Source: a virus. Taken from it: a stretch of DNA of 64,000 nt. The position numbers and the translations under genes were made by a program. Positions 5,361 through 49,615 of this stretch are shown here, piece by piece (positions within the stretch are counted from its first letter, which is position 1; each line of letters starts with the position of its first letter). The stretch is taken from positions 1 through 64,000 of the IMG/VR virus record IMGVR_UViG_3300042922_000542; one strand, given 5' to 3'. The notes under the pieces were generated by a model. The model saw nothing but the letters and a program-made list of their open reading frames with translations, did no database searches and was not told the DNA's origin.

Positions 5361-8300
5361 ATGGGCAAACAAATAGCCAAAAAAATTATACAATCTAGAA
5401 CATATATGGATCCAGATCAACGACCAATACCTGATCATGACTACTATCTTACGTATCCAATAACTACATTTGATGGTGTTAAGAAAAATGATAATGATGA
5501 TTCATCAAATTTAACTGATGAATTCGAACTCATTGATCAAAAATTAGCATTAAAACAGAATCAAATTCCAGCAAATAATTCAGGTCATATTGTAACATAT
5601 ACTAATGAACCTGGGGTAATTGGCACTAGGCCTGTTGTATCAAGTATTAACTTGGATCCTGCATTAAGAAATAATATTAATATTCCAACTGAAGCTGCAG
5701 TTGGTGCATTGAGTGATAGTAAAGTAAATAATAGAGATTTTAATACTCACGTGTCAGATGAAATTATTCATACATCCGAATATGAAAAAACGAATTGGAA
5801 TAATATGACACCCATTGGTGACTTCAATATACATACACATGATAAAGATATTCATATCACACCAAATGAACGTGCATCATGGAATGCCAAGGCGAATCAA
5901 AGTGATTTGAACTTGCACATCAATAATATCAACAATCCACATAGCGTTACCGCAGCCCAGATCAATACTTATACGAAACCTGAAATTGATACTAAGTTAT
6001 TATCAATACAAACTAAGTTCTTCAACTATTTGAATATAATATGGGATCAAAAACTTGGTATCGCCAAATTAGTTGAATATGATGCTATTAATTGGGATCC
6101 AAATTATATCTTAGGTTATAACGAAAGATTACCAGATATTGGAGATCCAACTGGTGTGTATTTTGCGCTAGCTCCTGCTACAAATTATCTCAACAATCAA
6201 ACAAATGATGTTATTATTTATATTAAAAAACCATCTATGGTATGGGTTGAGATAGGTCGTCAAACATTAGATCCTGGTGATCTAGTTGTAAGATATCCCG
6301 ATACGGCAATGTTTGTATGGATGGGAGGACGATTTGTAGAACTTATAACACGAAATAGCGATAGTCCTGATGATCCTGGTGGTGGCCTTAATGAACCTAT
6401 GCCGCCGTATACTGTAAAAGCTAATAATACAAACATTACGACTACACCACAAGATGTAAAATATGATGATATTTTGAGTAAATTAATTAGTATGATGAAT
6501 CCACAAGATATGGCGGATTTAATAAAACCACATCTAGATATTAAGGCTAGTGGTGACAAAGATATTTTAGGCAAAAGATGGATTAAGAGTAATTTTGATA
6601 GTGATGCAAATAGTGATAACGTCAAAGAGGCTATCAAAACGTATTATTTCAATGGAATATGGTTATTATACAATCACCATAAAGGTATATATTATTCCAC
6701 TGGTGGAAAATACTGGATGCCGACTAATGTAACTGATGCTAGTATCGTTTACTATTATGAAGAAAATGGATTATTATATGCCCTTTCAGTATTGATGAGC
6801 GACATGTTCGATATATCATTATCTTTATATTATTCAACTGATGGTATAAATTGGAGTGAATATAAACAGAATGGTGGGTACAATCTAATGTATCAAAATG
6901 GAATATGGCTATCTGGTGCTAGATCTTATATGCGTGAAGCACAAGAAGGTCATGCTATAACTGATCAATATAGTGGATTTGGGATACGCTATTCAGAAGA
7001 CGGTATAAATTGGATAAATAGTAATATTGCATCTGGAATTTTACAAAAATGCTATTACTATAATAATGTATGGATCGCAATCATGGAATACGTTGGTTCA
7101 AGTGGTCAGAGTCTTATGTTCCAAGTATATTATTCACGAGATGGTAAATTTTGGAGCAGCGGAATCAACATACCATCATCGGATTATGAAATAAGTATTG
7201 ATGTCAAAGATAATGTTTTATTCATTTTCAATATAAGTGACACTACCTATTATTCGTCCGATGGTATACAATGGCATAATACTAATCATGATTTTGGAAA
7301 GTGTATATGTACAGATGATGTATGGGTTGCATCTATAAGTTATGAAGGTTTATATTATTCAATTGATGCAGGAGTATCATGGAATAGTACAATTAATACT
7401 GATATACAAGATTTAGATTATAATAATAATATGTGGATTGTAGCCACAAATAAGAATATCTATTATTCTACAGATGGAATTAATTGGACTATAACAAACG
7501 CATCTCCAGGCAGTGAAACTTATAATTATTTCGACGATATTTATTATGGTAATGGCACATGGATAGTTCGAGGTTATAAGAAACTGTGTTATTCAACTGA
7601 TGGTGTAACTTGGAATGATTCCACAGCAATTTATAATGCGACTAGTTCTTTAGATATGATTGAATGTTATGGTGAATTATGGCTTGCTAATACTTCTACC
7701 GGATTTTACTATTCTACAAATGGCATCAACTGGACAACAATCGGTATAACACCATCTATGTTTTCTACTATCTATTATGAAAATAATATGTGGCTGTTAT
7801 TCGATAATGATAACAATGTAATATATTATTCAACCGATGGTATATTGTGGTCGCTATGTAGTATACCTGAAGGTATACTTCAATATGGTATTTATCATAA
7901 AAATAATATGTGGTTTGTAATTATTATGGATGACGATGGATCAGATTTAATGCATTTATGCCAATCTACTGATGGTATAACATGGACACTAACTAACATT
8001 TCTGCCAATTATATAAATATTAAATATGTTATTGATAAATGGATTGTGACCACGTATAATGAAATCGGATTAGTGTCATACTATTCTCTTGATGGCATAA
8101 CTTGGAATAATGGACCTACTACAAATTTCAATTATTCATCATATTACCCAGCAAATGGAATGGTTGTATCATGGGATAACACGGGTATAAAATATTCTAT
8201 AGATGGAGAAATATTTCATCCAACAAATATTACAGATCCAATTAAAATGTGTTGGAATGAAGGTGGAGTATGGTTTGCAACAAAGATTCAAATTTCAGAA

Positions 8301-9107
8301 AATGGTAACATTATTTCGGTTGCATCATATTATTCGATAGATGGTATATTATGGCAAATGATGGATATTCTTATAGCACCTAGTTATGTTATGAATATGG
8401 GTGACGTTGCCGAATATTATAATGATGGCAAATGGATAAAGGTGAACGCATTACCGATAATGGGCGGAGGTTCTGATCCTGAATATCAATATTATCATTC
8501 CACAAATGGAATCGATTGGGATTATATTAATTTATTCGATATTCCTTATAATTATTTTAAATATATTTATTATGCGAATAACTTATGGGTCGCAAATATA
8601 TATATACTCAATGATAGTCAGGACGGATGGTATGGATGCACATGTTATTCAGAAGATGGTATAAATTGGGTAAAAAGTAATATGGGGGTTAATACAAGTT
8701 ATATGATACAGGATGAAATACAATGTTGTTACTATGCAAATAATATATGGGTAGCAGCTGGTATGATGGGAATATATTATTCTTATGATGGGAAAACGTG
8801 GCAACAAACTGCCAGAGATAACAACTCAATTTGGAACTTTCATATATGCTATTATATTGAAGATAGTCATACATGGATATGTAATGGTCGTTGGAACGAT
8901 GGTAATGCTACTCATGTTAATCGAGATACAGAATTGTTTTATTCGCATGATGGTAAAACTTGGCATTATGTTAACGAAATACCATTTGACAAAATAGATC
9001 GTATCGTATCATATGATGCTCATGATGGAGTTATCGTAGCAGGTGGAGTTAAAACTGTATTCTTTTCATCAGGTAATGAATTAAATTATCGACCAAAACT
9101 AGAATAA
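5361..9107 (+). CDS. tail fibre / receptor-binding protein with C-terminal multi-blade Asp-box (BNR-like) repeat region
   Basis: RBS AAAGGGAG. The N-terminal third has tail-fibre-type His motifs (IHTSEYEKTNWN, IHITPNERASWN, NNPHSVTAAQI). The NNPHxVT motif is shared with ORF 21310-23634. The C-terminal two thirds carry about 18 copies of Y-Y-S-x-D-G-x-x-W. Confidence 0.75.
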   Translation: MGKQIAKKIIQSRTYMDPDQRPIPDHDYYLTYPITTFDGVKKNDNDDSSNLTDEFELIDQKLALKQNQIPANNSGHIVTYTNEPGVIGTRPVVSSINLDPALRNNINIPTEAAVGALSDSKVNNRDFNTHVSDEIIHTSEYEKTNWNNMTPIGDFNIHTHDKDIHITPNERASWNAKANQSDLNLHINNINNPHSVTAAQINTYTKPEIDTKLLSIQTKFFNYLNIIWDQKLGIAKLVEYDAINWDPNYILGYNERLPDIGDPTGVYFALAPATNYLNNQTNDVIIYIKKPSMVWVEIGRQTLDPGDLVVRYPDTAMFVWMGGRFVELITRNSDSPDDPGGGLNEPMPPYTVKANNTNITTTPQDVKYDDILSKLISMMNPQDMADLIKPHLDIKASGDKDILGKRWIKSNFDSDANSDNVKEAIKTYYFNGIWLLYNHHKGIYYSTGGKYWMPTNVTDASIVYYYEENGLLYALSVLMSDMFDISLSLYYSTDGINWSEYKQNGGYNLMYQNGIWLSGARSYMREAQEGHAITDQYSGFGIRYSEDGINWINSNIASGILQKCYYYNNVWIAIMEYVGSSGQSLMFQVYYSRDGKFWSSGINIPSSDYEISIDVKDNVLFIFNISDTTYYSSDGIQWHNTNHDFGKCICTDDVWVASISYEGLYYSIDAGVSWNSTINTDIQDLDYNNNMWIVATNKNIYYSTDGINWTITNASPGSETYNYFDDIYYGNGTWIVRGYKKLCYSTDGVTWNDSTAIYNATSSLDMIECYGELWLANTSTGFYYSTNGINWTTIGITPSMFSTIYYENNMWLLFDNDNNVIYYSTDGILWSLCSIPEGILQYGIYHKNNMWFVIIMDDDGSDLMHLCQSTDGITWTLTNISANYINIKYVIDKWIVTTYNEIGLVSYYSLDGITWNNGPTTNFNYSSYYPANGMVVSWDNTGIKYSIDGEIFHPTNITDPIKMCWNEGGVWFATKIQISENGNIISVASYYSIDGILWQMMDILIAPSYVMNMGDVAEYYNDGKWIKVNALPIMGGGSDPEYQYYHSTNGIDWDYINLFDIPYNYFKYIYYANNLWVANIYILNDSQDGWYGCTCYSEDGINWVKSNMGVNTSYMIQDEIQCCYYANNIWVAAGMMGIYYSYDGKTWQQTARDNNSIWNFHICYYIEDSHTWICNGRWNDGNATHVNRDTELFYSHDGKTWHYVNEIPFDKIDRIVSYDAHDGVIVAGGVKTVFFSSGNELNYRPKLE
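6642..9107 (+). repeat. about 18 tandem protein-level repeats of about 45 aa (YYSxDGxxW plus N-x-x-W-hydrophobic), beta-propeller-like
   Basis: Hand count of motifs such as YYSTDGINWS, YYSRDGKFWS, YYSSDGIQWH, CYSTDGVTWN, YYSLDGITWN, FYSHDGKTWH, each followed about 20 aa later by NxxW(I/V/L)A. They resemble the SxDxGxxW Asp-box of BNR/sialidase-type propellers. Confidence 0.7.
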
Positions 9108-10190: not shown

Positions 10191-11180
10191 ATGGCTATAA
10201 TCGGATATACTGAAAACACTGACTTGACTTCTTTCAATGAATCAACTCTTTCAAAGAGTGAAACATTTAAATTATTTCAAGCCATCGGCGACCCAATAGA
10301 AAAAGCAAAAAACCTCATCAAAAATGCACGGGTTTTAACAAATGAAGATATTGAAACAGCGTATATTCAAGTTAAACAATATTCAAATTCATTAAGTAGA
10401 TCTGCTGTTAAAGCATACGATACCGGTTCCGTAGTTCTTTTATACACCGAGTTACCGTCACTTAGAATGAGTCAAGCATTTCCATTTATTACATTTAGGC
10501 ATAAAGATAAATATATCACATATATATTTATCGATAAATATATATCTAAAAGAAAAGATGGTGGATTGGATTTAAGCCCTGCGGTGTTACATGATTTATT
10601 AATAGGCGGAGTTATCGCCAATAAATTAAAAACTAATTATGATTCATTAGCAAGTAATCAATACCTACAAAAAATGTTAATGGAAATTTACACAAAATTC
10701 GTTACCCGTATTATTAATAAAGAATATGGAATCGGTGCAGATAAACAAATATCTGATTCAGCGCAATATTTTATAAATAGATTTTTCCTGGAAAAGATAT
10801 TTGAAACTAATGATGTGCCAGAAAACATTGAACGTCTTAGTATAAATAAATTAAAATATTTAGATGAAATGCTCATAAATGAAATAAAAATTAAATATGA
10901 AACTGCAAACCCATCATCATTTAGTGAATTATTGGAATTAGTTAAATCATTAAGTGTGAGGATGAATTCATTAACATTAAAATTATTTACAGATAAATGG
11001 ATTAATTATTATTACGCACCTGCAACATTAGCAATTGACAACATGGAATATTTAATATTCATGATAATTGCATTACTGCATGGAAATAATACGATTATAT
11101 CAATTAAAGCATCTGAAATAGTTAAGGAAACAAAAGGTATTAAAATGTTACAAGAAGAAATGCTGAAATTAATAAATTAA
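10191..11180 (+). CDS. hypothetical protein (329 aa)
   Basis: RBS GAGGAG 8 nt upstream. Long ORF with no recognised motif. Confidence 0.75.
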   Translation: MAIIGYTENTDLTSFNESTLSKSETFKLFQAIGDPIEKAKNLIKNARVLTNEDIETAYIQVKQYSNSLSRSAVKAYDTGSVVLLYTELPSLRMSQAFPFITFRHKDKYITYIFIDKYISKRKDGGLDLSPAVLHDLLIGGVIANKLKTNYDSLASNQYLQKMLMEIYTKFVTRIINKEYGIGADKQISDSAQYFINRFFLEKIFETNDVPENIERLSINKLKYLDEMLINEIKIKYETANPSSFSELLELVKSLSVRMNSLTLKLFTDKWINYYYAPATLAIDNMEYLIFMIIALLHGNNTIISIKASEIVKETKGIKMLQEEMLKLIN

Positions 11181-11243
11181 ATTTATATACTTATAGGAAC
11201 TATTAGATTAATTCAATAATAATATAAAAGGAGTGTTCAAACT

Positions 11244-11546
11244 ATGGCAGCAATTATAAAAAATGTAGTAATCGATGAATTTGAAATACCTGAGGAGTTA
11301 GCCAAAGAACTTAGCTCATTATTAACAGAATCTTCTATTAAGAAAGCATTGCTTGTGGAATTAGTTGAAGTGCCGGCTAAATATGATATCATTGAAAATG
11401 CAGTAATTATACTTGAAGATAAAATAACTGCATTAAAGAATATGATCACTAGAGAATATGTTCCAAATCATTACAGATCTTCTGAATATTCTTGGAACTA
11501 TGATGGTTATGCCACTGCAGGTCGCATTGTTCAAATTATGAAATAA
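11244..11546 (+). CDS. hypothetical protein (100 aa)
   Basis: RBS AAAGGAG upstream. The opposite-strand ORF 11237-11449 has no RBS. Confidence 0.7.
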   Translation: MAAIIKNVVIDEFEIPEELAKELSSLLTESSIKKALLVELVEVPAKYDIIENAVIILEDKITALKNMITREYVPNHYRSSEYSWNYDGYATAGRIVQIMK

Positions 11547-11561
11547 CATATACTAAAAATA

Positions 11562-11585
11562 ATGGGGGACAATCAAGTCCCCCAT
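11562..11585. terminator. bidirectional terminator hairpin between convergent genes
   Basis: atggggga-caatcaag-tcccccat with T-rich tracts on both sides. Confidence 0.75.
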
Positions 11586-11607
11586 TATTATTTATTTTTT
11601 TATTTTA

Positions 11608-11901
11608 TTAGCAATTGCATCCACGACTAGTACAAGAGCAGCCATCATTATCTTCAACTAATATCATTCCGCAGTTATTGACAAACGAAATATACAAATC
11701 CGATTTTTTATCAGATGTAGACGAAACGTAGCCCTTACTTAATTCTTGTCTTAATACACTTAGACGAGTTGTTATATCAACCCATTCATTCGTGAATGAT
11801 TCATGCACGCCAACAAATTGTTCAACCGCATTAGCACGCCCAATCAATTCTAGTGGCAATACATTTGTATCAATTAATTCATATTGAACTTTCTTAACCA
11901 T
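11608..11901 (-). CDS. small protein with C-terminal Cys motif (CSCTSRGCNC); candidate radical-SAM substrate
   Basis: RBS CAGGAG placed immediately after the stop of the upstream Cys-rich gene. It is the last gene of the operon before the terminator. Four of its five Cys lie in the last 10 residues. Confidence 0.7.
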   Translation of the reverse strand: MVKKVQYELIDTNVLPLELIGRANAVEQFVGVHESFTNEWVDITTRLSVLRQELSKGYVSSTSDKKSDLYISFVNNCGMILVEDNDGCSCTSRGCNC

Positions 11902-11915
11902 TATATTTCTCCTGA

Positions 11916-13181
11916 TTAATAATTTATTTTTCTGAATGATCTCTGTTGATCTTCTCGATTCATAGGTTGAGGATATCCAATTGTAGTCGGTTCTGTATGA
12001 TATGATTTCTCTGAAATATCTGCAGATGTATTAGATTGTAAATACGTTGTACAATGTCCTACGCATGTACTAATGCATTTATCAGTACAATTATTAAAAC
12101 AATCTCTATTACAACTTGAGTCACACCACCAACCACATAAATTGGCACAATTAGAACAAGTACCCTGACATTTAACTGAGCATAAACCAATACACATACC
12201 CACACATGAGTAGCAAAGATCACTACAACCACCACATGAGTCAGTGCAATTATCATAACAATGATTCACACATTTATTTACGCATGTTTGAGTACAATAA
12301 ATATTACATGCTTGGCCACATTGAACCGAACATTGACTTGAACAAGGTCCACAATTAAATCCACAATTGTTAGCGCATGTTCTACATAATGATGAACATG
12401 CATTTGAACATAGTGCTGTACATGATTTACCAACACAATTAACACTACATGTATTTACACATGCACCCTTACTTGCACCGCATGATGAACGACAAGCTTC
12501 TAGATGACAACTCGTGTTACAATCCTTTTGACATAGACCGGTACACGAACCACCGCAATTTCCACATCCCGTTGATCCAGGCGGTTTAGCATCCTCTTGG
12601 GATGATGCATGACCATCACATGTTGTACATATACCAGTGTTTGCATTACAATCACTTGCACAATTTGTACAACCGCCACCACCAGAACTAGTAGTTGCAC
12701 ATTCTTCTCTACACGATGTTCCACATCCTGTGCATGCACCACTACAACCACTACAACCATCTCCAGTACTAGTGCCGCTACATCCTCCACCACAGGTACC
12801 ACCGCATCCACCTTCACATCCATTTCCACAACTAGAGCTACACATAGAACAGTCACCTGAACAACTTCCAGGGCAACTAGTATCTCCAGGATCTGGTGCA
12901 GCAGATGACGATCCTTTACAAGTACCAGTACAACCACTACACCCTCCACTGCATCCATTAGAACATGATCCGGACCCAGCATTACAAGTATCTCTACACA
13001 TACCTTTACATGTTGTACCACAACTATCAGAACTACAACCTGCACCGCATCTAGATTGACAAGATGTTCCACAACTACCACATCCAGTACCAATACTCTT
13101 TGTTGCTGTGGTACTACTAGAACTACTAGCAGCATCTTTTGCTTGTTTTATAGCACCTATTATTCCTGACAATAAACTCAT
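11916..13181 (-). CDS. hyper-cysteine-rich protein (421 aa, 78 Cys by hand count, mostly Cx3C spacing)
   Basis: RBS AAGGTGA. A Cys-free 33-aa N-terminus is followed by three Cys/Gly/Ser/Thr blocks separated by short Pro/Asp linkers, then a Cys-free 44-aa tail. The frame is chosen by RBS and operon context among several open frames. Confidence 0.8.
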   Translation of the reverse strand: MSLLSGIIGAIKQAKDAASSSSSTTATKSIGTGCGSCGTSCQSRCGAGCSSDSCGTTCKGMCRDTCNAGSGSCSNGCSGGCSGCTGTCKGSSSAAPDPGDTSCPGSCSGDCSMCSSSCGNGCEGGCGGTCGGGCSGTSTGDGCSGCSGACTGCGTSCREECATTSSGGGGCTNCASDCNANTGICTTCDGHASSQEDAKPPGSTGCGNCGGSCTGLCQKDCNTSCHLEACRSSCGASKGACVNTCSVNCVGKSCTALCSNACSSLCRTCANNCGFNCGPCSSQCSVQCGQACNIYCTQTCVNKCVNHCYDNCTDSCGGCSDLCYSCVGMCIGLCSVKCQGTCSNCANLCGWWCDSSCNRDCFNNCTDKCISTCVGHCTTYLQSNTSADISEKSYHTEPTTIGYPQPMNREDQQRSFRKINY

Positions 13182-13214
13182 TTATCAATCACCTTCTTTA
13201 CACAATGATCTGTA

Positions 13215-14852
13215 TCAAACACGTATACCCGTATTTGCATTACAATCTATTTTACATGTAGCTGTACAAGCACTAGTACAACCAAAACACGTTCCAGTAC
13301 ATGTTAAATTACATGATCCAGTACAACCATCACAAGCTGTACACCCATTTGAACATCCAGTGTCACAGTTACCACAATTATTACTGCAGGTTACAGTACA
13401 ATTATCGTAGCAACTATTTTTACAAGTACTGAAACATGACAATGTACATACACCCTCACATACACCAGCACAATCACCTGTACAATCTGCAACACAACCC
13501 TCTTTACACGATTGACCCTTTCCAGATTTATAACCACCATTATGTTCATTATCATTACTAATGCATCCACCAAAACAACTAGTTGAACAATATGTATTAC
13601 AAGTTGTAAAACATAATGCTGAGCATACTGAATCCCAACATGTCGTTTTTTTATTAGGATAATATTGACATGAGAATGAACATCCACTGCATGTATACGT
13701 TGATGATATTACTGTATTTTGGATAACTGCACTTGAGGCTGTCTGTCCACAATTATTACTACATCCGCTAGGGTTACCTGTAGATTTAATAGAAACTGTA
13801 TCAGCTCCTGCATTCAAACAAGATTTACCACCAATATCACTACATTTGGTTTTACATCCAGAATAACATTGTGTCGTACATCCTGTACATATATTACCAC
13901 AATCTGAATGACATGCATTACCGCATCTGCTCCAACATGTGGATGCACAACCTTCGGAACATTGATTATCACATGTTAGATAACATAAACCTGTACATGC
14001 TACATTACACAATCCTTTAGATCCTGTTGAAATTTGTCTTGATGGATATTCTGATCCTCTATTAGGGTTTCTAGGATTAGCTCCAAATCTAGATGCTGAA
14101 CTAATGCCACCTGTCACTTGATCAACTACTGTTTCATTTCGTTGATCGTCCTGAGTAATTATATGACGATGAACAATCGGTGAAACATATGGGTTTATCG
14201 GATGATGATCAATAACACCAGGACTTGCTCCATAATCATCATAGAAGTTAGTCTCATCAGGACCACTATGACCTGGTAATATTTCTTCACCATCATATTC
14301 TCCAGATGGATATTCTACTGGAACTGTTACGGTTTTACCATTATTTGCAATAGGGTATAAACCATATCCTGTATACATACCATTCGTAACTCCATTATTA
14401 GGGTCATATTTCTGAAAAGATTCAGTAACGGGCACATTTAAAATATCATTTTCAGCAGCTTCTATTTTTGTTGATATATCTTCAGGATCTCTAAACACTA
14501 AACCCGCAACCTCATCTCTGCCATAGAATAAATCTATGTCATGGATCTTAGATAAACCAACTAAATAGTTTTGTATTTCATCAACATCAATTCTAGCACT
14601 AGATGAATTAATATCTCCAACAGGATTATCTCCTTGCGCAGGATATTTGATATTTCTTGTAGGTTCTATGGATCCGGTAGATGGAGTATTAATGGTATAT
14701 GTTTTATCTGTGACTTCACTAGTCCTATCAGCTCCGACTGCAGGTGTAGTTAACGGATCCCACCATTTAAATGTTCCACGACGTTTAATCTCAGCATTTA
14801 ATTTATCCTTAATTGCATCAAATTCTGTTTTTGAATATAATTTATCATTCAC
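13215..14852 (-). CDS. two-part protein: Cys-free N-terminal domain (about 280 aa) plus C-terminal Cx3C lattice (52 Cys)
   Basis: No ATG near the 5' end. The track starts at GTG 14870. I prefer GTG 14852 because GAGGTG lies 6 nt upstream. The first Cys is residue 288 of the track ORF (nt 14009). The protein ends in ...CKIDCNANTGIRV. Confidence 0.75.
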   Translation of the reverse strand: MNDKLYSKTEFDAIKDKLNAEIKRRGTFKWWDPLTTPAVGADRTSEVTDKTYTINTPSTGSIEPTRNIKYPAQGDNPVGDINSSSARIDVDEIQNYLVGLSKIHDIDLFYGRDEVAGLVFRDPEDISTKIEAAENDILNVPVTESFQKYDPNNGVTNGMYTGYGLYPIANNGKTVTVPVEYPSGEYDGEEILPGHSGPDETNFYDDYGASPGVIDHHPINPYVSPIVHRHIITQDDQRNETVVDQVTGGISSASRFGANPRNPNRGSEYPSRQISTGSKGLCNVACTGLCYLTCDNQCSEGCASTCWSRCGNACHSDCGNICTGCTTQCYSGCKTKCSDIGGKSCLNAGADTVSIKSTGNPSGCSNNCGQTASSAVIQNTVISSTYTCSGCSFSCQYYPNKKTTCWDSVCSALCFTTCNTYCSTSCFGGCISNDNEHNGGYKSGKGQSCKEGCVADCTGDCAGVCEGVCTLSCFSTCKNSCYDNCTVTCSNNCGNCDTGCSNGCTACDGCTGSCNLTCTGTCFGCTSACTATCKIDCNANTGIRV

Positions 14853-14915
14853 ACTTATCACCTCAATCACATTTATATTTGCATTTATTTAATTTTAAAG
14901 AGTCTGCAAATTCAA

Positions 14916-16727
14916 TTATTGGTTTTCCAATACGGTAATTGTAGAACGAGCCACTATCATTTTTAATAATTTTAACTCTTCCTCATTAATAACCATCAAT
15001 GCCCATTCGTCGGGTAATTGTAATTTTCTTACTCCCAAATTATAATGTGGTTTCTTTATAGCTAACAGGTTCCAGTAATATACATTGGCTAAGTGTTCGG
15101 CAAACATTTGTAAACATATGAATTGAGTTCTCTTATTTGCAGTCCCATATGTTTGATGGCATAACCCACTACACCAAGAGCAAGAAGATCCAATTGGACA
15201 ATCATAACAAATATCATTTGATTGTGAACGCCTTGTTACACTATCCATCATCGACAATATTTCGGATCCTTCTTCTCTACCAACCATACCAGTATCAATA
15301 TGACCTATACATTGCTCTTTGCATTTCGTTCCAAGTGATGATGGCATATATCTAATACATGGATAAAATTTACCCTTGTAGTCTAGTGCCAACATTGATC
15401 CTAATCCTCCACACCAATTTTGATCCGAAGTGTGTTTAAGCCTAGTCTCAGGTTTATCATCGAATATAGCAATATATAGATGCTCTAAATTATTTTCCAG
15501 CAAGTAGTTCGCTAGTTTCTTTAATTGTTCATATTCTAGTGTAGCAGTTTCTTGTGTCCAAACATCTTCAAACACGCAGTTTAAATTGATAGATTCCATA
15601 TCCTCATTGATGAAATTAATAACTGAATCATATAAATATTTCATATTTTCTGGAGCCAATGTCATCTTTGAATTTCTTTCGGTAGTATGATATTTATTAA
15701 AATGATTTAATGCAAGAATATCGATATCATACGAGCCTTCACCATTAGGCTGGATTCTACATGAGTCTTGTAATTCTTTATTACCATCTATTGATATATT
15801 AAATGAAACATGTTTAGCATATTTTTTAAAGAAATCTTGCACGTCTCTATCAAAATATAACATCCCATTGGTACATATAGAAATTCTATGCATTGCAAAC
15901 CATGGATGGTTTAATTCATAGCATCTTTCTAAAAAATATTCATAAATCTTTTTGGTAAGATTAATTTCTAACAATGGGTCCCCACCAATAAACTCAATGA
16001 TTATTGCAGGTGAATTGTGTTTATTAATATAACTATATTCATCATTTAAAAGTTTATCGATAAATGCTTTAGCTGTTGGAAATTTCATTCTTCCACATGT
16101 TTTATTTATCTGATAACAATATGTGCAGGATAAATTACAATCCTCAGTTGTTTGGAATGTAAAGTTGTGTACATATATTGATGTATCCTTATTAGTAGGA
16201 TCTACTGTATCTTGAGTAAACAATTCAGGGTAAACTTTTTGAATGGCATCACTATAACTTTCAACATTAAATCTAAAAAATTGATTTGGCATTATATTAA
16301 ATACTTCATCATCCTTTATTTTATCATCAATATAATTTAAACAATTTTCATCATCAGATAATATTATTACATCAAATCCAATCTCTTGATTTTTGAAATC
16401 AATATGTTTAACAATTACCTCAGATATATTATCAATATTATATGAGGAAACTCCAGATGATTCGATTATATCATTTAAGAATACTGCAACTATTTCACAG
16501 AATCCATAACGTACCTCGTCCAAGATACTAGTAAGTTTTTCATGTAATTCCGGGATTTTATCTAGATCCTTATTATGGTCATACATATAATTTATTCTAA
16601 ATGATATCGCATCAGCTTCATATCGTAACCTGGTTGTTTTATGATACCCGAATGTCTGCATTTCAAATATATCGAATTGCTGATTGTATAATTTAATTTT
16701 TTTATATAATGCATTTGTCTCTTTCAT
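14916..16727 (-). CDS. radical SAM / SPASM-domain enzyme with about 190-aa N-terminal extension (603 aa)
   Basis: RBS AGGAGG. CNLSCTYC (CxxxCxxC) at nt 16116-16139. C-terminal GKFYPC ... CYDCPIGSSCSWCSGLC auxiliary-cluster pattern typical of SPASM proteins. Confidence 0.85.
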   Translation of the reverse strand: MKETNALYKKIKLYNQQFDIFEMQTFGYHKTTRLRYEADAISFRINYMYDHNKDLDKIPELHEKLTSILDEVRYGFCEIVAVFLNDIIESSGVSSYNIDNISEVIVKHIDFKNQEIGFDVIILSDDENCLNYIDDKIKDDEVFNIMPNQFFRFNVESYSDAIQKVYPELFTQDTVDPTNKDTSIYVHNFTFQTTEDCNLSCTYCYQINKTCGRMKFPTAKAFIDKLLNDEYSYINKHNSPAIIIEFIGGDPLLEINLTKKIYEYFLERCYELNHPWFAMHRISICTNGMLYFDRDVQDFFKKYAKHVSFNISIDGNKELQDSCRIQPNGEGSYDIDILALNHFNKYHTTERNSKMTLAPENMKYLYDSVINFINEDMESINLNCVFEDVWTQETATLEYEQLKKLANYLLENNLEHLYIAIFDDKPETRLKHTSDQNWCGGLGSMLALDYKGKFYPCIRYMPSSLGTKCKEQCIGHIDTGMVGREEGSEILSMMDSVTRRSQSNDICYDCPIGSSCSWCSGLCHQTYGTANKRTQFICLQMFAEHLANVYYWNLLAIKKPHYNLGVRKLQLPDEWALMVINEEELKLLKMIVARSTITVLENQ

Positions 16728-16797
16728 TATAATACCTCCTGTTATATATTAACTTTATTTAGCTTAATTCTTAGTAATATTAAAATCATATAAAGAT

Positions 16798-16821
16798 AAT
16801 GGATGGGCAATCCCATCCATT
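16798..16821 (-). terminator. hairpin (terminator or attenuator) inside the radical-SAM cluster
   Basis: aatggatggg-caat-cccatccatt, between the stop at 16826 and the start at 16727. Confidence 0.55.
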
Positions 16822-16825
16822 ATCA

Positions 16826-17662
16826 CTATCTATTATTTGATATGTATTCTTGATATATCATGGATAGTTCTTGATCAACTTTATTCCGCTCAGTTAATTT
16901 TGTATCATCATATTTTTGCTCGGATAACAATTGACCATTACAGTCCTTCGTTGAAATTACATAATGTGAATTGACATTAACGGTATTAATATTCTCAATA
17001 GTGATTTCATTATCGATAAAATAATTATCATAGATTAATTGTTTCATAATACTCATATAATGATCTCTAATAATATTGAAATCATCACTGACAAATCCAA
17101 ATTCAATTCGTTTAAATCCAATAGAAACTAAATTATTGATACTTTCTTTAAGATATCCAATATTAGATTTATTTAAAGTACAATGTGCAATTAGGTTAAT
17201 CCCACTCTTTATGAATTTGCCTATATTGTCTATTATATAATCATATGATCCTTTCCCGTTTTTAAGTATACGATTAATATTGTGCGATAATTTATTACCA
17301 TCTATTGAAATACATAATAAAATATTATATTTTTTAATGGTATTAATAATTTCATCTGAATACATCATACCGTTAGTTGAAGTTACAAATTTAAATTTAT
17401 ATTCAGAATAATGATCAATAATATATTTACATATTTGATTTAGTCGATCTATAAATAAAAATGGTTCACCGCCTAATAATTCAACAGTAATCGACCTACC
17501 CGTAATATGCAACATACTTTCATCGAATATCCGAATTATATCATCTATGGTACTATCTGATTCAATATCACTATCAAGCATATTATTATATACATAACAA
17601 TATTTACATCTCATATTGCAGAGCTTAGTAATATACATATTTATATGTCGACATTCAGACAT
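16826..17662 (-). CDS. radical SAM enzyme, short form without SPASM tail (278 aa)
   Basis: CNMRCKYC at nt 17597-17620 and a GGEP motif (LLGGEPF). The start overlaps the upstream stop as TAATG, which implies translational coupling. Confidence 0.85.
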   Translation of the reverse strand: MSECRHINMYITKLCNMRCKYCYVYNNMLDSDIESDSTIDDIIRIFDESMLHITGRSITVELLGGEPFLFIDRLNQICKYIIDHYSEYKFKFVTSTNGMMYSDEIINTIKKYNILLCISIDGNKLSHNINRILKNGKGSYDYIIDNIGKFIKSGINLIAHCTLNKSNIGYLKESINNLVSIGFKRIEFGFVSDDFNIIRDHYMSIMKQLIYDNYFIDNEITIENINTVNVNSHYVISTKDCNGQLLSEQKYDDTKLTERNKVDQELSMIYQEYISNNR

Positions 17663-18783
17663 TAATCATCATCCTTCAAATTAAATTTAATACGAATATT
17701 GTCATATCCAATTTTATTAATAAACATTTCAGATGCATCATAAAAAAGTTTTATTGCTTTACATACACCATCTATGGGTTCACATATATTTTTCTTACCA
17801 TGTTCCATTATTGCTGCAAAACATTGACCATAGCATACGCCATATAATTCACAATTTCTACATTTTGGAGATATATCATGTGAAAAGTTTTTATATATAT
17901 TTGCAATATTATTGGTTTCATCAATATCAGTAAATATGGAACCAAGTTTAGTATGTTCAAAGCGGTTATTGAAAAAACGTTGACAAGGATATATGTCACC
18001 ATTGGGTGCTAATGCAATTGTAGATGAACCAGCTGAACAGAAGTAGGTTCTACCGTGGGCTTTACATCTATATGGTAATAGTAAGCCAGTATCAAGAAAT
18101 GGAGTTTCCGAGTAAAATTTATCAACTAGAAATTCTACATATTCAATATAAAAATTCTTTAATCTCTCCAATTGCACATCATTCCAATCGCAATCTCGGA
18201 CAATACTCAAATTAATACGCCTGAATCCATCTTTGATGTAATCTTTAATACCATCTAGGACATAATCAATATTATCAGGTGATATCATAAATTTAAATAT
18301 TTTAGAGCTGATTGGTCTGTTATTAGCTTCACAATATAGTGTAGCACCTTTTATACAGTCATCATAGCTACCTTTACCATTTGGATATACCCGACATCTA
18401 TCATGGCTGCTTCTCCCACCATCTAGGGACATACTAATCCCTATTTCATTATTCTTGAGATATTCAACCTTCTCTTTATTTAATAATGTCAAATTACTTG
18501 TAGTCATAATTGCAATATTTACATCTGGTCGCATTTTTTTTACTTCATTGATATTATCAACTATTTTACAGAATTTTTCCCATTCCATTATAGCCTCTCC
18601 ACCGAATAAATCAATATGAAGAGATTTTATATCATTTTTAACGATAATATTATTAAGAAATACGGGCAAATATTCAATAACATCATCCGATATTGTTAAC
18701 CCGTTTGTTTTATTAACATAGCAATATTTACAACGCAAATTGCATTTCTCAGTTACAATAATAATGATTGTACTAATTTTCAT
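17662..18783 (-). CDS. radical SAM / SPASM-domain enzyme (373 aa)
   Basis: CNLRCKYC at nt 18721-18744. The C-terminus reads CSAGSSTIALAPNGDIYPC ... CRNCELYGVCYGQC, the canonical Cx2Cx5Cx3C SPASM pattern. Confidence 0.9.
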   Translation of the reverse strand: MKISTIIIIVTEKCNLRCKYCYVNKTNGLTISDDVIEYLPVFLNNIIVKNDIKSLHIDLFGGEAIMEWEKFCKIVDNINEVKKMRPDVNIAIMTTSNLTLLNKEKVEYLKNNEIGISMSLDGGRSSHDRCRVYPNGKGSYDDCIKGATLYCEANNRPISSKIFKFMISPDNIDYVLDGIKDYIKDGFRRINLSIVRDCDWNDVQLERLKNFYIEYVEFLVDKFYSETPFLDTGLLLPYRCKAHGRTYFCSAGSSTIALAPNGDIYPCQRFFNNRFEHTKLGSIFTDIDETNNIANIYKNFSHDISPKCRNCELYGVCYGQCFAAIMEHGKKNICEPIDGVCKAIKLFYDASEMFINKIGYDNIRIKFNLKDDD

Positions 18784-18794
18784 TTTTTATACCT

Positions 18795-19184
18795 CTAATT
18801 ATCACCTATTACCAAACCACATTGATCACAATCACATGCACATCTATCACAATTGCAAGAACATCTATCGCAATCACAATCACAATTATCGCAATTACAT
18901 TGACATGTATTATTGTATATTGTCGTAGCAGCTATACTGGCATTATTAAAAACTGTAGCAAGTATATATTTGCCTTGTTCAAAATTTATCAATGAACTAA
19001 GATCTGCCTTGGGATATACCGCTGAATGACCATTTGCAGCAACTAAATTATTTTTAATTGATGTAAACAAAGTGCTAGTTATTAAATTACCTTTCACGGC
19101 TCTTTCTGTATTTGCAGGTTGACCAAGTCGTATTCGAGTTTGATCAACCGATGCAGCAACAACATTTGCATCATCCGCTAACAT
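18795..19184 (-). CDS. protein with C-terminal alternating Cys tail CQCNCDNCDCDCDRCSCNCDRCACDCDQC; candidate radical-SAM substrate
   Basis: The track ORF begins at GTG 19217. I prefer ATG 19184 (AAAGG 7 nt upstream). There are 13 Cys within 27 residues near the C-terminus. The stop lies 9 nt before the RBS of the next radical-SAM gene. Confidence 0.75.
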   Translation of the reverse strand: MLADDANVVAASVDQTRIRLGQPANTERAVKGNLITSTLFTSIKNNLVAANGHSAVYPKADLSSLINFEQGKYILATVFNNASIAATTIYNNTCQCNCDNCDCDCDRCSCNCDRCACDCDQCGLVIGDN

Positions 19185-19194
19185 TTTCTGACCT

Positions 19195-19518
19195 TTAACT
19201 ATTGCCAATGTTATCACCCACTTTTACAATAAAATCAATAGACTCATATAAAATATCACTGATTGAGAAGTGATATATATTCTTTACAATATTACTTATA
19301 GATTTAACGATGGTACCATTTACCAATACCTGAACTGATTTTACTGGTTTATCCCTAAAATATTGATTTAAAACTGTACCTGTTGTTGGAACAACATCAT
19401 TTATGATACGTAATTGAGTTAATTCACTCCCAACATTCATAAAAAAATTTATCCCCGCAGTTTTATCAATTATAACATCTTCATCAATATATTCAATTTT
19501 TATTTTTACACCTTCCAT
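19195..19518 (-). CDS. hypothetical small protein (107 aa) within the radical-SAM cluster
   Basis: RBS AGGAGGG. No Cys motif. Function unknown. Confidence 0.7.
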   Translation of the reverse strand: MEGVKIKIEYIDEDVIIDKTAGINFFMNVGSELTQLRIINDVVPTTGTVLNQYFRDKPVKSVQVLVNGTIVKSISNIVKNIYHFSISDILYESIDFIVKVGDNIGNS

Positions 19519-19549
19519 AATTTAACCCTCCTGTTTATAATAATTAATC

Positions 19550-19951
19550 TTATTCATAATTAAAATGGAGTTCGGAATTAGATAAATATATTCGATCTAT
19601 TATTATATCATCCATAATATTTATACCATATGAGATACTCTTTACGCCTAATATTTCATCACATATTTCATCTCCATTAAACATTTGAACATTGATTACT
19701 TTTCGATCCATCAATGCTTGACGAATTATATCAAATTTTTCATGAAAGTCGTTAACTGTGACATTTCTAATGATTAATGCATTTGATATCATTTTGCTTA
19801 AACTATTTGCCACTGTGAGACTATCATCTCGGTATCGTACGGCCGATACTACCGGGGATTGAGGTAGGGATGTTGGATCTATATTAATATTAGGCACCAC
19901 ATCTAATGTCATCGTCACCATTGGTTCGATTATTATTTTTACACGTGTCAT
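19550..19951 (-). CDS. hypothetical small protein (about 133 aa) within the radical-SAM cluster
   Basis: The track start is 19972. Met8 at 19951 has AAAGGGG about 10 nt upstream. It overlaps the 3' end of the upstream radical-SAM gene by about 62 nt. Confidence 0.6.
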   Translation of the reverse strand: MTRVKIIIEPMVTMTLDVVPNINIDPTSLPQSPVVSAVRYRDDSLTVANSLSKMISNALIIRNVTVNDFHEKFDIIRQALMDRKVINVQMFNGDEICDEILGVKSISYGINIMDDIIIDRIYLSNSELHFNYE

Positions 19952-21224
19952 TGCATGAACACCCCTTTTCATTTATCATACGAGAAACTTTTTCTGTTAT
20001 TAATAATTCATGTAATTCTAATAAATGTTGTAGCGTTATTATTTGACCTTCCGTAAAATTATCAGTTAGAAGTCTACCCATTTCTTGCAAAACTGTAATT
20101 GAGACTTCGTGATCTCTATGAATTTTACCAAATAGTCGTTCATATACATAAATCGATAATTCCATTTCAACCTCTAATAATTTACAATACTTAGGAAAAC
20201 CATATGCGATATTTCCATTTTCTATATAATTAATAGCCATACAGCTCTTGCAGTTATAATTCTTACATTCAGAACATGCCTTGTATCCAGTCATATATTT
20301 TTTATACATCTCTTCATATGGTGCACATTTTAATGTATTTATACCATTAAATACATCACCAATTATAGTATCTGGGTCATTCATGAATGCATGGCATGGA
20401 TATATATAACCATCTGGAGCTACAGTGCAAAATGATACACCCGCACCGCATGTTTTATCGGCATGTCGCTCTTTATATACCATTGATGAAAATTGTTTAT
20501 AATTCCCTCCACTATTTTCACAATCCTCAATGATTGCATTGGCAATATGGGTATATTGCTCTCTAAATATAACATAATCATTTTCATCCCAATTCTCTTC
20601 ATGAAGAGGCATAAACCATATCTTATCAAATCTTAAGATATTTTTAAAGAAGATGTATGACTCATGTGCATATGGTAATGTTGCTTTGGTTATAACACTA
20701 TGCACTGATAATTTATTAGATGGAATGTCTAATTTATCAAATAATGCTCTAAGTTTTTTTATCGTCTCTATTATATTATGAGATGAACCATTACCCGCAT
20801 GATCAATTCTTTGCAGATCATTAATCCTAGGAATTGAATCAAATGATAATTGAATTGAAAAACTTTCAGGATTATTTACCCACCAATTGGTTAGAAATTG
20901 TTCGTATTCATTATTGTATAATACACCATTTGTTATCAATTCACTATTATATTTCAAACCATGTTTTTTACATTGATCCATAGCATAATTGAATATGTGG
21001 TTCATAGTATTTATATTGAGTGTAGGCTCCCCTCCAAAATATGACACACTAATACTTGTTTTATTATTAACTAAAGCATCATGGATAAGTAAATCAATTG
21101 TTTTTTCACCAATCTCATTACTCATAAATTTACCCTTTGATGAATTATTTTTTTCAAAACAATATTTACAATTAAGATTACATGTGTCTGTTAATAGTAT
21201 CGATGCACTCGTAAATGATGACAT
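19890..21224 (-). CDS. radical SAM / SPASM-like enzyme (444 aa)
   Basis: RBS AGGAGG. CNLNCKYC at nt 21159-21182. CGAGVSFCTVAPDGYIYPC ... CSECKNYNCKSC, plus a C-terminal helical extension ending in GCSCNDTC. Confidence 0.85.
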   Translation of the reverse strand: MSSFTSASILLTDTCNLNCKYCFEKNNSSKGKFMSNEIGEKTIDLLIHDALVNNKTSISVSYFGGEPTLNINTMNHIFNYAMDQCKKHGLKYNSELITNGVLYNNEYEQFLTNWWVNNPESFSIQLSFDSIPRINDLQRIDHAGNGSSHNIIETIKKLRALFDKLDIPSNKLSVHSVITKATLPYAHESYIFFKNILRFDKIWFMPLHEENWDENDYVIFREQYTHIANAIIEDCENSGGNYKQFSSMVYKERHADKTCGAGVSFCTVAPDGYIYPCHAFMNDPDTIIGDVFNGINTLKCAPYEEMYKKYMTGYKACSECKNYNCKSCMAINYIENGNIAYGFPKYCKLLEVEMELSIYVYERLFGKIHRDHEVSITVLQEMGRLLTDNFTEGQIITLQHLLELHELLITEKVSRMINEKGCSCNDTCKNNNRTNGDDDIRCGA

Positions 21225-21286
21225 TTATTACGCCTCCTGATAATTATAGAAATTAATATTGTATGTTGTTTAAGATTCCTATATTT

Positions 21287-21319
21287 AAATAGTTAATCCG
21301 ATTGTCGGATTAACTATTT
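21287..21319 (-). terminator. terminator hairpin overlapping the tail-fibre stop codon
   Basis: aaatagttaatccg-attgt-cggattaactattt, a 14-bp perfect stem. Confidence 0.65.
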
Positions 21320-23634: not shown

Positions 23635-23776
23635 TGTTATCATCCTCCTATATGTCATAAAATATAATTATTACTCTAATTTATATTAAACAAATGGTTT
23701 GAGTGCTGATGAAGAAAAGCAAAAAAATGAATTATTTAGATTATATATTATTCTATAAATATACCATAAAATCATA

Positions 23777-36017: not shown

Positions 36018-36764
36018 ATGATATTAATGTTAACTTCAAGATGCAATGGCAATTGTACTCACTGTATGTCTAGATGCACTGAAGATGGAATTGATATGAG
36101 TATGAAGGTACTCAAAGATAGTATAGAATTTATTAAGAAATTATATGTTAATACTATAAATATTGGCGGCGGTGAACCGACAATGCACCCTGCATTTATA
36201 GAATGTTTAAAGCTTATCAAAAATGAGATTGGTGACCGCATCATCACATTATGTACAAATGGGATTTTTGTACGTAATGAATATTTATTCAATGAAATAA
36301 AGGAATTAGATATATTAATTCAAACTACATATAATGCAGATTTATATAAGACTGGTTTGACTGATGAGGAAATAAATAAATTAAAAGATATAAGTGTTGT
36401 TGTATTGGATGAACCATCTAAGGAGAGATTACTTGAATATGGTAGAGCATTAGACAATAATCTTGAAACATCAACTACGAGAATATCACCATTATGTTTT
36501 AATATAAGATCCCTAGTTAAGGCTAGTGAATTTGAGCTGGATGCTGCTATTAATAGACTTGAATGGATGAATAAATTCTGCTGCCCAACAATTAGACCTG
36601 ATGGATCAATCAGTTTAAGTGAATCATTATGTTGTCCATCAATCGGGACAATATATGATAGTATTGATACTCTTACAGAAAATATAAAAAAATTTAATTG
36701 TACCAATTGTGTTTATGCCAAACGATTACTCAATGATGATCGATATTCATCAATATTAAAATAA
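36018..36764 (+). CDS. small radical SAM enzyme (248 aa) with C-terminal Cys cluster
   Basis: RBS AGGAGGG. CNGNCTHC at nt 36042-36065. GGGEP motif. C-terminal CCPTIRPDGSISLSESLCCP...CTNC. Confidence 0.8.
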   Translation: MILMLTSRCNGNCTHCMSRCTEDGIDMSMKVLKDSIEFIKKLYVNTINIGGGEPTMHPAFIECLKLIKNEIGDRIITLCTNGIFVRNEYLFNEIKELDILIQTTYNADLYKTGLTDEEINKLKDISVVVLDEPSKERLLEYGRALDNNLETSTTRISPLCFNIRSLVKASEFELDAAINRLEWMNKFCCPTIRPDGSISLSESLCCPSIGTIYDSIDTLTENIKKFNCTNCVYAKRLLNDDRYSSILK

Positions 36765-49472: not shown

Positions 49473-49545
49473 AAAGTAATTAACTCCTTTCTGTATTATA
49501 TAATACGGTTTTATAATTGCGTTACTGCTATAAATGAAGTTATAT

Positions 49546-49571
49546 GTGATAGAGGGAATTCCCTCTATCAC
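49546..49571 (-). terminator. terminator hairpin upstream of the RNAP gene
   Basis: gtgatagaggg-aatt-ccctctatcac. It lies inside the track's N-terminal extension of the RNAP ORF, which supports the later start. Confidence 0.6.
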
Positions 49572-49615
49572 ATACACCTTATTTTGTTCTAGGAGGAACA
49601 TTTATGTCAGCAAAT

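Follow-up and report, generated by a model that had tools for sequence, protein, structure and literature searches.

The window examined here, a 64,000-nucleotide (nt) stretch of viral DNA (positions 1 to 64,000 of the IMG/VR record IMGVR_UViG_3300042922_000542), carries on its minus strand two adjacent genes for cysteine-rich proteins, gene A (winA) and gene B (winB), and upstream of them a gene for a radical S-adenosylmethionine (rSAM) enzyme of the SPASM type. A preliminary description of gene A, made from the letters of the window alone, had regarded its product as a chimera, in which an ordinary amino-terminal domain was fused to a 'lattice' of duplicated cysteine modules closed by an octapeptide, DCNANTGI, that recurs in gene B. 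Our comparisons with related phage loci point instead to two halves of a single ancestral protein, separated by an old gene fission at a hypervariable hinge, and suggest that this protein is probably the substrate of the neighbouring enzyme. The features concerned are listed below in the direction of transcription.

14916-16727, minus strand: rSAM/SPASM maturase, CXXX-repeat target family, 603 amino acids (aa), with an N-terminal extension of about 185 aa
14859-14864, minus strand: Shine-Dalgarno-like hexamer GAGGTG, with 6 nt between it and the GTG start codon (14850-14852)
13215-14852, minus strand: gene A, 545 aa, the predicted N-terminal half of a split giant CXXX-repeat protein (cysteine-free N-terminal region plus lattice blocks 1-3)
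14010-14852, minus strand: cysteine-free N-terminal region of gene A, residues 1-281, with conserved motif islands
13365-14009, minus strand: lattice blocks 1-3, residues 282-496 of gene A, in which non-cysteine residues are conserved position by position
13218-13364, minus strand: hinge segment, the C-terminus of gene A (residues 497-545), hypervariable among relatives
13224-13247, minus strand: first copy of DCNANTGI, at residue 536 of gene A, followed by Arg-Val-stop
13182-13217, minus strand: fission spacer, consisting of TGA, eight sense codons, TGA and TAA, in frame with both genes
11916-13181, minus strand: gene B, 421 aa with 78 cysteines, the predicted C-terminal half of the split protein
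12567-13181, minus strand: lineage-specific part of gene B, comprising a 33-aa cysteine-free N-terminus and a Gly/Ser/Cys-rich Cxxx region (residues 34-205)
12630-12653, minus strand: second copy of DCNANTGI, at residue 177 of gene B, followed by CTTCDG and leading into the conserved C-terminal half

Start codon and cysteine layout

The minus-strand open reading frame (ORF) that ends at 13215 is 551 aa long in its longest version, from a GTG at 14870, and 545 aa long from the GTG at 14852. The latter start is well supported because the Shine-Dalgarno-like element stands before it (in the context GAGGTG-ATAAGT-GTG) and because homologues have their first residues, MN(D/K/S), at the aligned position; the closest relative likewise begins GTG AAC GAT, another has ATG at that position, and the sole ATG near the start of gene A is out of frame. 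A GTG start, as proposed originally, is thereby upheld. All 52 cysteines of gene A fall within residues 282-537, with 39 of 51 spacings equal to 4 (CxxxC) and six equal to 3, so that the basic layout first described, a cysteine-free N-terminal region followed by a lattice of 52 mostly Cx3C cysteines, was accurate. The first cysteine codon had also been placed correctly, at nt 14009, but its residue number, 288, was counted from the start at 14870 while the gene coordinates were taken from 14852; the true residue is 282. In gene B, 54 of the 77 cysteine spacings equal 4. The x positions of the Cx3C repeats are mostly Ser, Thr, Gly or Asn, with Asp and Glu accounting for just 3-7% at each position.

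One gene in most relatives, two in this phage

An exhaustive HMMER search with the N-terminal region, covering 1.84 billion representatives, returned 23 clusters only, and in IMG/VR there were nine loci, the longest contig measuring 292 kb; among GenBank phages, there was no DNA match for positions 11000-22000 and no tblastn match for the gene A protein. Full-length relatives span 685-1564 aa, and many continue after the lattice into variable C-terminal domains of 100 to 800 aa. The combination of N-terminal region and lattice is present in every relative long enough to judge, and the term 'chimeric' cannot be sustained; judged by these alignments, the combination appears ancestral to the whole family and is no peculiarity of this genome.

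In the related loci L002-L010, a single ORF of 685-994 aa with 86-90 cysteines covers both window genes, as does one of 1074 aa in L013 (the fused form was counted in at least eight related sequences, of 685-1074 aa). Gene A is colinear with residues 1 to ~555 of these single-gene relatives, and residues ~206-421 of gene B align with their C-terminal half, including a conserved tail, …YPxPxNRxEERESF…. Between the two conserved parts the window has ~230 extra residues, made up of the end of gene A and the cysteine-free start and repeats of gene B, where relatives have ~40-45 hypervariable residues. The lineage-specific part of gene B is mostly without a counterpart in single-gene relatives, whose short hinge aligns there in patches only, and its GC content is 0.43 against ~0.36 in the flanks.

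The same division recurs elsewhere: L011, the closest relative (72% identity), encodes proteins of 544 and 448 aa, L016 of 637 and 707 aa, and L017 of 730 and 425 aa, with both halves intact in each, and an independent Logan assembly of the window phage contains identical gene calls of 545 and 421 aa. Because of this recurrence and the independent assembly, the split is an old, stable fission, located at the hypervariable hinge between lattice blocks 3 and 4, and neither an error nor a pseudogene. That one gene had been broken by a sequencing or assembly mistake, or had recently decayed, might be supposed from the shared frame of the two ORFs and from their joint length of 966 aa, which is that of the single-gene relatives; this is extremely improbable, given not only the recurrence of the split but also the succession of TGA, TGA and TAA, followed by a sequence, GAAGGTGA, at 13189-13196 that resembles a ribosome-binding site (RBS) and by the gene B ATG at 13179-13181. 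Stop-codon read-through or recoding across the gap was considered separately and rejected, as three in-frame stops including TAA intervene and the window reads well in the standard code.

The phage itself is a phiKZ-like, RNA polymerase-encoding jumbo phage, since the window encodes a 976-aa homologue of the phiKZ-type multisubunit RNA polymerase beta-subunit (46671-49601, minus strand; phrog_2986 and 2962 in tandem) and since a protein identical to its maturase occurs on a 246-kb JGI contig. The L013 sequence is a 129-kb contig (JAMPGK010000011.1 of GCA_023663985.1), with a maturase and the 1074-aa fused lattice gene, in a metagenome-assembled genome labelled 'Lachnospiraceae bacterium'; either the binning of a phage contig went wrong or the label hints at the host range.

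A radical SAM maturase beside the lattice gene

The gene upstream, which the preliminary description had left unconnected with gene A, is the key to the identity of the lattice. It lies on the same strand as gene A at a distance of 63 nt, and its 603-aa product has TIGR04115 as its best NCBIfam match, scoring 344.4 bits across model positions 3-359 of 359, with a cut-off of 350; the orthologues in L011 and L013 score 344.8 and 360.1 bits. 'Radical SAM peptide maturase (CXXX-repeat target family)' is the JGI name of the identical protein and the NCBI name of a homologue that is 58% identical. The CxxxCxxC motif appears as CNLSCTYC at residue 197, and SPASM-type cysteines are found at residues 439, 457, 507, 510, 516, 519, 523 and 538; Pfam matches are to Radical_SAM and Fer4_12, while none to SPASM is reported at E <= 0.01. 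By sequence, the nearest solved structure is that of CteB, a SCIFF thioether maturase (5wgg, E = 7e-15), and the second-best NCBIfam match is the PapB model NF047865, at 148.7 bits (119-183 bits for the three other rSAM enzymes of the cluster; cut-off 340). Scores of this order suggest a relative of the PapB and CteB families and not a member of either.

In L002-L008, L011, L013 and L017, the maturase gene directly precedes the lattice gene, and we predict on these sequence grounds that the lattice is the Cxxx-repeat target of a dedicated rSAM/SPASM maturase. Both partners have been invaded by inteins. Elements of the Hint plus LAGLIDADG kind interrupt the protein after lattice cysteines (…C|FKAGT…VHN|C…) in P0006, P0008, P0009 and L016-B (L016 7936-10059), and inteins also occur in many maturase homologues, resulting in forms of 744-958 aa. 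Because inteins are inserted in both, lattice protein and maturase alike are translated, conserved proteins.

The extreme density of cysteine, 9.5% in gene A and 18.5% in gene B, also invites an explanation in terms of metal: the product could be a metallothionein-like sponge, or a scaffold feeding iron-sulphur clusters to the phage's rSAM enzymes, its thiols ligating metal and remaining un-cross-linked. The window does contain five rSAM genes, all of whose products need such clusters, and rSAM/SPASM enzymes bind them. Yet the best match of the partner enzyme is to a family of peptide maturases that is defined by Cxxx targets, relatives with a single rSAM gene retain the lattice gene, and we know of no cluster-binding or metallothionein pattern that consists of regular Cx3C with Ser, Thr, Gly or Asn between the cysteines. 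We regard a metal-binding role as quite unlikely, and a maturase target remains the preferred reading.

Constraint and the question of duplicated blocks

At non-cysteine positions, blocks 1-3 share 38-52% identity with relatives and blocks 4-5 share 25-42%, about as much as the N-terminal region does (44-54%), and signatures such as CWSRCGNAC, CQFYPNKKTxCWD, CYSCVGMCIGxCSVKC and CGWWCD recur; the lattice therefore behaves, in these comparisons, as constrained sequence and not as low-complexity filler. Conservation by position is not accompanied by similarity between the two genes. The best alignment of the gene A lattice with the 421-aa protein scores 133 bits against 131.5 +/- 6.3 for shuffles that preserve the cysteines, whereas a truly orthologous pair, gene B residues ~206-421 and the C-terminal half of single-gene relatives, reaches 248 bits where shuffles give 119 +/- 8. 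Block duplication between genes A and B was rejected for this reason, there being no homology of blocks beyond the cysteine pattern, and the 'duplicated modules' of the preliminary description are contradicted. Self-comparison of the DNA gave short matches only; recent tandem amplification at the A/B junction was likewise rejected, as Tandem Repeats Finder reported there just short arrays of period 9, 12 and 24, none of them sizeable.

Long ORFs in other frames and on the other strand overlap the cysteine-rich genes within 12500-13410 (for example 12500-13135 minus, 12637-13059 plus and 13108-13410 plus). Their translations are rich in Val, Leu, His and Pro and are by-products of the periodicity of TGT, GGT and AGT codons.

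The octapeptide shared by genes A and B

DCNANTGI is found in both genes at the positions given originally, although the DNA identity of the two copies is 22 of 24 nt, and not 21, with both differences synonymous and the match extending to 29 of 36 nt. The codon that follows differs by one base, CGT (Arg) in gene A and TGT (Cys) in gene B. An exact shared 8-mer or longer arose in 9 of 1000 shuffles that kept cysteine positions and composition, making a chance origin unlikely, if not overwhelmingly so. In the closest relative, the A gene ends SCNANTGSKV-stop and the corresponding B site has CSGGSGICTGCDG, so that CNANTG is kept at three of four sites despite synonymous changes; this hints, from a tiny sample, at local constraint. 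The octapeptide is absent from L002-L010, from the second site in L011 and from all distant homologues.

We propose, with moderate confidence, that DCNANTGI is a hinge loop that was duplicated locally when, or after, the gene split. It had been taken for a boundary or terminating motif with a possible role in recognition, and the first half of this idea survives, in that the alignments put the motif at a real module boundary, the fission hinge; because distant homologues do not have it, it would not be a family-wide or general recognition signal. The fuller view, that an ordinary domain has been joined to duplicated cysteine modules, each closed by DCNANTGI, can draw on the near-identity of the two copies, on their position at a true boundary and on the survival of CNANTG in the C-terminus of the closest relative. 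An ancestral architecture, lattices no more alike than shuffled sequences, the want of sizeable tandem arrays and the restricted occurrence of the motif largely refute it, and we consider it very unlikely. The shared octapeptide is explained by the fission and is ordinary; the interesting part is the system that surrounds it.

The amino-terminal region

The cysteine-free region consists of conserved islands in a background rich in Pro, Gly and Asn: an N-terminal helix, EFxxLKxRINxEIxRRGTFxWWDPL or, in a longer form, YSxxEFxxIKxxLNxEIxRRGTFxWWDPL, followed by DKTYTINNPS, LxGLSKIxDIxLFYGRDE, PSGExDGEE and FGxNPRNP. AlphaFold2 models it, at low confidence, as three helices and a hairpin and otherwise mostly as coil. 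Scans of genes A and B against Pfam, PHROG and NCBIfam returned no family above the cut-off. A 49-column profile of the family N-terminus matches, with E = 3.6e-4 among 458 ORFs, a 'mini' Cxxx protein of 193 aa (L015 4517-5098), which adjoins a 37%-identical maturase, and this fits a leader-like docking role for the helix. For the region as a whole, the roles first suggested, an anchor to the virion or a very large leader, are candidates.

A leader-like helix raises the prospect that the whole protein is the precursor of a ribosomally synthesized peptide with post-translational modifications (RiPP), with a giant leader of 281 aa and a modified cysteine-rich core that is cleaved and released as a toxin, metallophore or signal. 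The maturase does belong among the RiPP-type rSAM/SPASM families, the helix is common to the 193-aa protein, cultured jumbo phages have leader-plus-Cxxx proteins of classical size (~130 aa), and long leaders are familiar from NHLP/Nif11 precursors. Family scans of adjacent genes, on the other hand, recognised no protease or exporter, with two small neighbours lacking any match; a 'core' of 250-700 aa, conserved position by position, would be required, and the large C-terminal domains suit a multidomain protein better. A released peptide is in our judgement unlikely, and we retain the multidomain maturase substrate in what follows.

Genomic neighbourhood

Across relatives, the order of genes is tail-fibre-like gene, maturase, lattice gene, and the other strand carries a 100-aa gene, a member of a 'virion structural' PHROG, an exonuclease and another tail-fibre-like gene. 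Two further features of the window belong to this arrangement.

21310-23658, minus strand: tail-fibre-like gene (782 aa), whose counterparts in relatives lie directly upstream of the maturase
11608-11901, minus strand: 97-aa protein directly after gene B, with a cysteine-containing C-terminus, …DGCSCTSRGCNC

The 97-aa protein is conserved at the same place in the closest relative (43% identity), where the cysteine motif is internal (SCSCKTASCGS); it may be a third small target or a partner.

Between the tail-fibre gene and the maturase, the window has a block, 16826-21224 (minus strand), that is found in no relative. It encodes an rSAM enzyme without SPASM (278 aa), a PapB-like rSAM/SPASM enzyme (373 aa, 183 bits), a 444-aa rSAM/SPASM enzyme that also matches TIGR04119, 'CXXX repeat peptide maturase' (61.5 bits; cut-off 150), two small ORFs and a 140-aa protein that ends in a CxC-repeat tail (CQCNCDNCDCDCDRCSCNCDRCACDCDQC). 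In IMG/VR, the 444-aa enzyme had one relative, 26% identical, and neither the 373-aa enzyme nor the 140-aa protein had any. The block looks like a second, separate rSAM-target module.

Far from this cluster, the fifth rSAM gene of the window (36018-36764, plus strand) encodes 248 aa with CNGNCTHC near the N-terminus and 13 cysteines. A 1248-aa tail-fibre-like protein (5361-9107, plus strand) has an N-terminal fibre motif (phrog_8147/25620) followed by many YYSxDGxxW-type repeats, whose resemblance to BNR/Asp-box repeats suggests a propeller-like distal domain; its counterparts in relatives, of 1070-1505 aa, have the N-terminal part alone in common.

A proposed explanation

We think it probable, with some reservation, that a giant CXXX-repeat protein of a phiKZ-like jumbo phage, a maturase substrate that has been split at its hinge, has its N-terminal half encoded by gene A. 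The usual form in the family is one polypeptide of ~700-1500 aa, having a cysteine-free N-terminal region with a leader-like helix, ~90 cysteines as Cxxx repeats in position-specific blocks, a tail of the form …GPERxPTAxGYxYPxPxNRxEERESF… and, often, a variable C-terminal domain. The maturase encoded at 14916-16727 would take the lattice protein as its substrate and, by homology with PapB, CteB and QhpD, would most likely abstract hydrogen atoms and link cysteine sulphur to carbons of neighbouring residues, which would amount to a processive, multi-site stapling of the thioether type in the reducing cytoplasm. The acceptor chemistry may differ from that of PapB, because Asp and Glu are so infrequent at the x positions. 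In the present lineage, gene A has come to end …DCNANTGI-RV-stop, with a 33-nt in-frame spacer carrying the RBS; gene B begins with new Gly/Ser/Cys-rich Cxxx repeats, the ancestral sequence resuming at …DCNANTGI-CTTCDG….

Several observations weigh against this explanation. The maturase falls 6 bits short of the TIGR04115 cut-off, and the target models respond poorly: gene A scores 15 bits with TIGR04117 (E = 0.02; cut-off 50), gene B has no match, neither reaches the cut-off of 20 for TIGR04114, and the precomputed matches on record to PF27846, 'tSAM_targ_Cxxx_rpt', are only 'faint' for both genes. Adjacency has its exceptions, as L010 has its maturase on the opposite strand, ~4 kb downstream, and no maturase turned up in the L009 locus. 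The chemistry is extrapolated from homologues whose scores with the PapB model are low (149-183 bits; cut-off 340), and a literature search found no experiment on any CXXX-repeat system. The N-terminal motif does not occur in gene B or in its L011 counterpart (which starts MATCANC…), and were it the recognition element, modification of gene B would have no explanation. No match to the N-terminal region exists in PHROG, in Pfam or among PDB sequences, searching the latter with the family profile gave nothing at E <= 1, and the AlphaFold2 models were too poor for a fold search (predicted local distance difference test, pLDDT, of 35 for the full 545 aa with a 15-sequence alignment and 48.7 for the N-terminal region with 24 sequences). 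The account of a duplicated hinge derives from a 36-nt match and a shuffle frequency of ~1%.

The genomic context, with tail-fibre-like and 'virion structural' PHROG neighbours, would associate the product with the virion or the tail-fibre module, and a hardened product probably acts with those genes. By analogy, variable C-terminal domains are the pattern expected of fibres or receptor-binding proteins. A more specific proposal, that the protein is a virion component such as a fibre shaft or similar rod, with ~1000 residues and ~90 cysteines turned into dozens of intramolecular thioether staples by a dedicated rSAM enzyme, is tentative, and we would sooner doubt it than adopt it. If true, the protein would be hardened covalently, independently of oxygen, inside anaerobic hosts whose cytoplasm is reducing; it would far exceed every known rSAM/SPASM substrate in size and in extent of modification, and no phage fibre cross-linked post-translationally in such a manner would have been known before; the A and B halves would then be separately made pieces that co-assemble.

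Comparison with known systems

Modular tail fibres and receptor-binding proteins resemble the lattice family in having an N-terminus that is conserved, a middle that is long and repetitive, variation between relatives in the C-terminal domain and a neighbourhood of tail-fibre and virion genes, but there is no sequence or profile match to any fibre family (PHROG, Pfam, PDB sequence), and to our knowledge no fibre shaft is made of Cxxx repeats. The ranthipeptide/SCIFF systems (PapB-PapA, which makes freyrasin, and CteB-CteA) resemble it in rSAM/SPASM architecture and cysteine-rich substrates. PapB and CteB bond cysteine sulphur to a carbon of another residue by means of a 5'-deoxyadenosyl radical and auxiliary clusters, and PapA consists of repeated Cys-X3-Asp units, each of which is stapled. 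Their substrates are peptides of fewer than ~50 residues with six cysteines, in contrast to proteins with 52-90 cysteines and few acidic acceptors.

The nearest relation is the CXXX-repeat system (TIGR04115 with TIGR04114/TIGR04117 and PF27846), which has in common the end-to-end maturase match, a tandem Cxxx target and adjacent genes. It differs in scale and organisation: the TIGR04117 target has 98 positions and the TIGR04114 repeat unit 18, as opposed to 545 plus 421 aa here; its precursors are short (~100 aa), while gene A adds a cysteine-free region of 281 aa; and its Gly/Ser-rich repeats are uniform, whereas the present blocks are position-specific, many relatives have a variable C-terminal domain and the host genome is that of a phage. 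A scan of genome contigs with the maturase confirmed no relative, and thus no bacterial CXXX loci for comparison, and the literature search found no paper on CXXX-repeat chemistry or biology, nor on cysteine-rich rSAM targets in phages. Such systems are already known, if only as database models; what is new is its giant, multidomain and split phage form.

Smaller counterparts exist in cultured jumbo phages. A tblastn search with the maturase found rSAM pairs, 23-25% identical, in Salmonella SPN3US-like phages, Cronobacter CR5 and Erwinia jumbo phages, and between a virion-structural gene and these rSAM genes lie two or three tandem Cxxx ORFs of 130-147 aa with ~20 Cxxx repeats, located upstream of the rSAM pair as follows.

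L014 (SEGD1), 2131-3159: tandem Cxxx-protein region, including the Cxxx ORF 2533-2937
L018 (CR5), 2154-2959: tandem Cxxx-protein region, with Cxxx ORFs at 2154-2546 and 2516-2959
L019 (pEa_SNUABM_29), 2100-3122: tandem Cxxx-protein region

Small phage proteins of CR5 (31.5 and 32.4 bits) and L015 (21.3 bits) pass TIGR04114; the SEGD1 Cxxx protein is a member of phrog_6085, to which the giant protein of L013 weakly matches. The phrog_6085 proteins of SEGD1, CR5 and pEa_SNUABM_29 resemble the window system in belonging to jumbo phages and in lying downstream of a virion-structural or tail-fibre-like gene and upstream of rSAM genes. BLASTP between the upstream tail-fibre gene of the window and SEGD1 gp171 showed no significant homology. 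The cultured-phage enzymes also have TIGR04115 as best NCBIfam match, but at 126 bits, and their systems include a second rSAM enzyme that lacks SPASM; their targets, at 130-147 aa (besides one of 68 aa with three CxxxC units), have uniform CSG-type repeats and no large N-terminal region. Deposited coding sequences (SEGD1_169/170, CR5_157 and pEaSNUABM29_00267/268) overlap the Cxxx ORFs, either on the opposite strand or in a different frame, and two of them from SEGD1 translate into proteins rich in Val, Ala, Leu and Arg. These deposited sequences look like mis-calls, and such mis-annotation would follow from the same codon periodicity that produces overlapping ORFs in the window.

CXXX-repeat targets and their rSAM maturases have so far been known as protein-family models (TIGR04114, TIGR04115, TIGR04117). 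By the present comparison, the system is conserved in a group of gut jumbo phages (~250-300 kb) that is widespread; its substrate can be no mere peptide but a protein of several domains and as many as ~1500 residues, and evolution has remodelled the system through inteins in the genes of both partners and a fission at one hinge. On such a view, rSAM enzymes of the RiPP type would cross-link proteins on a scale undescribed before, and the miniature versions that Salmonella, Cronobacter and Erwinia jumbo phages carry in culture, which wrong-frame annotation hides in part, would offer tractable systems.

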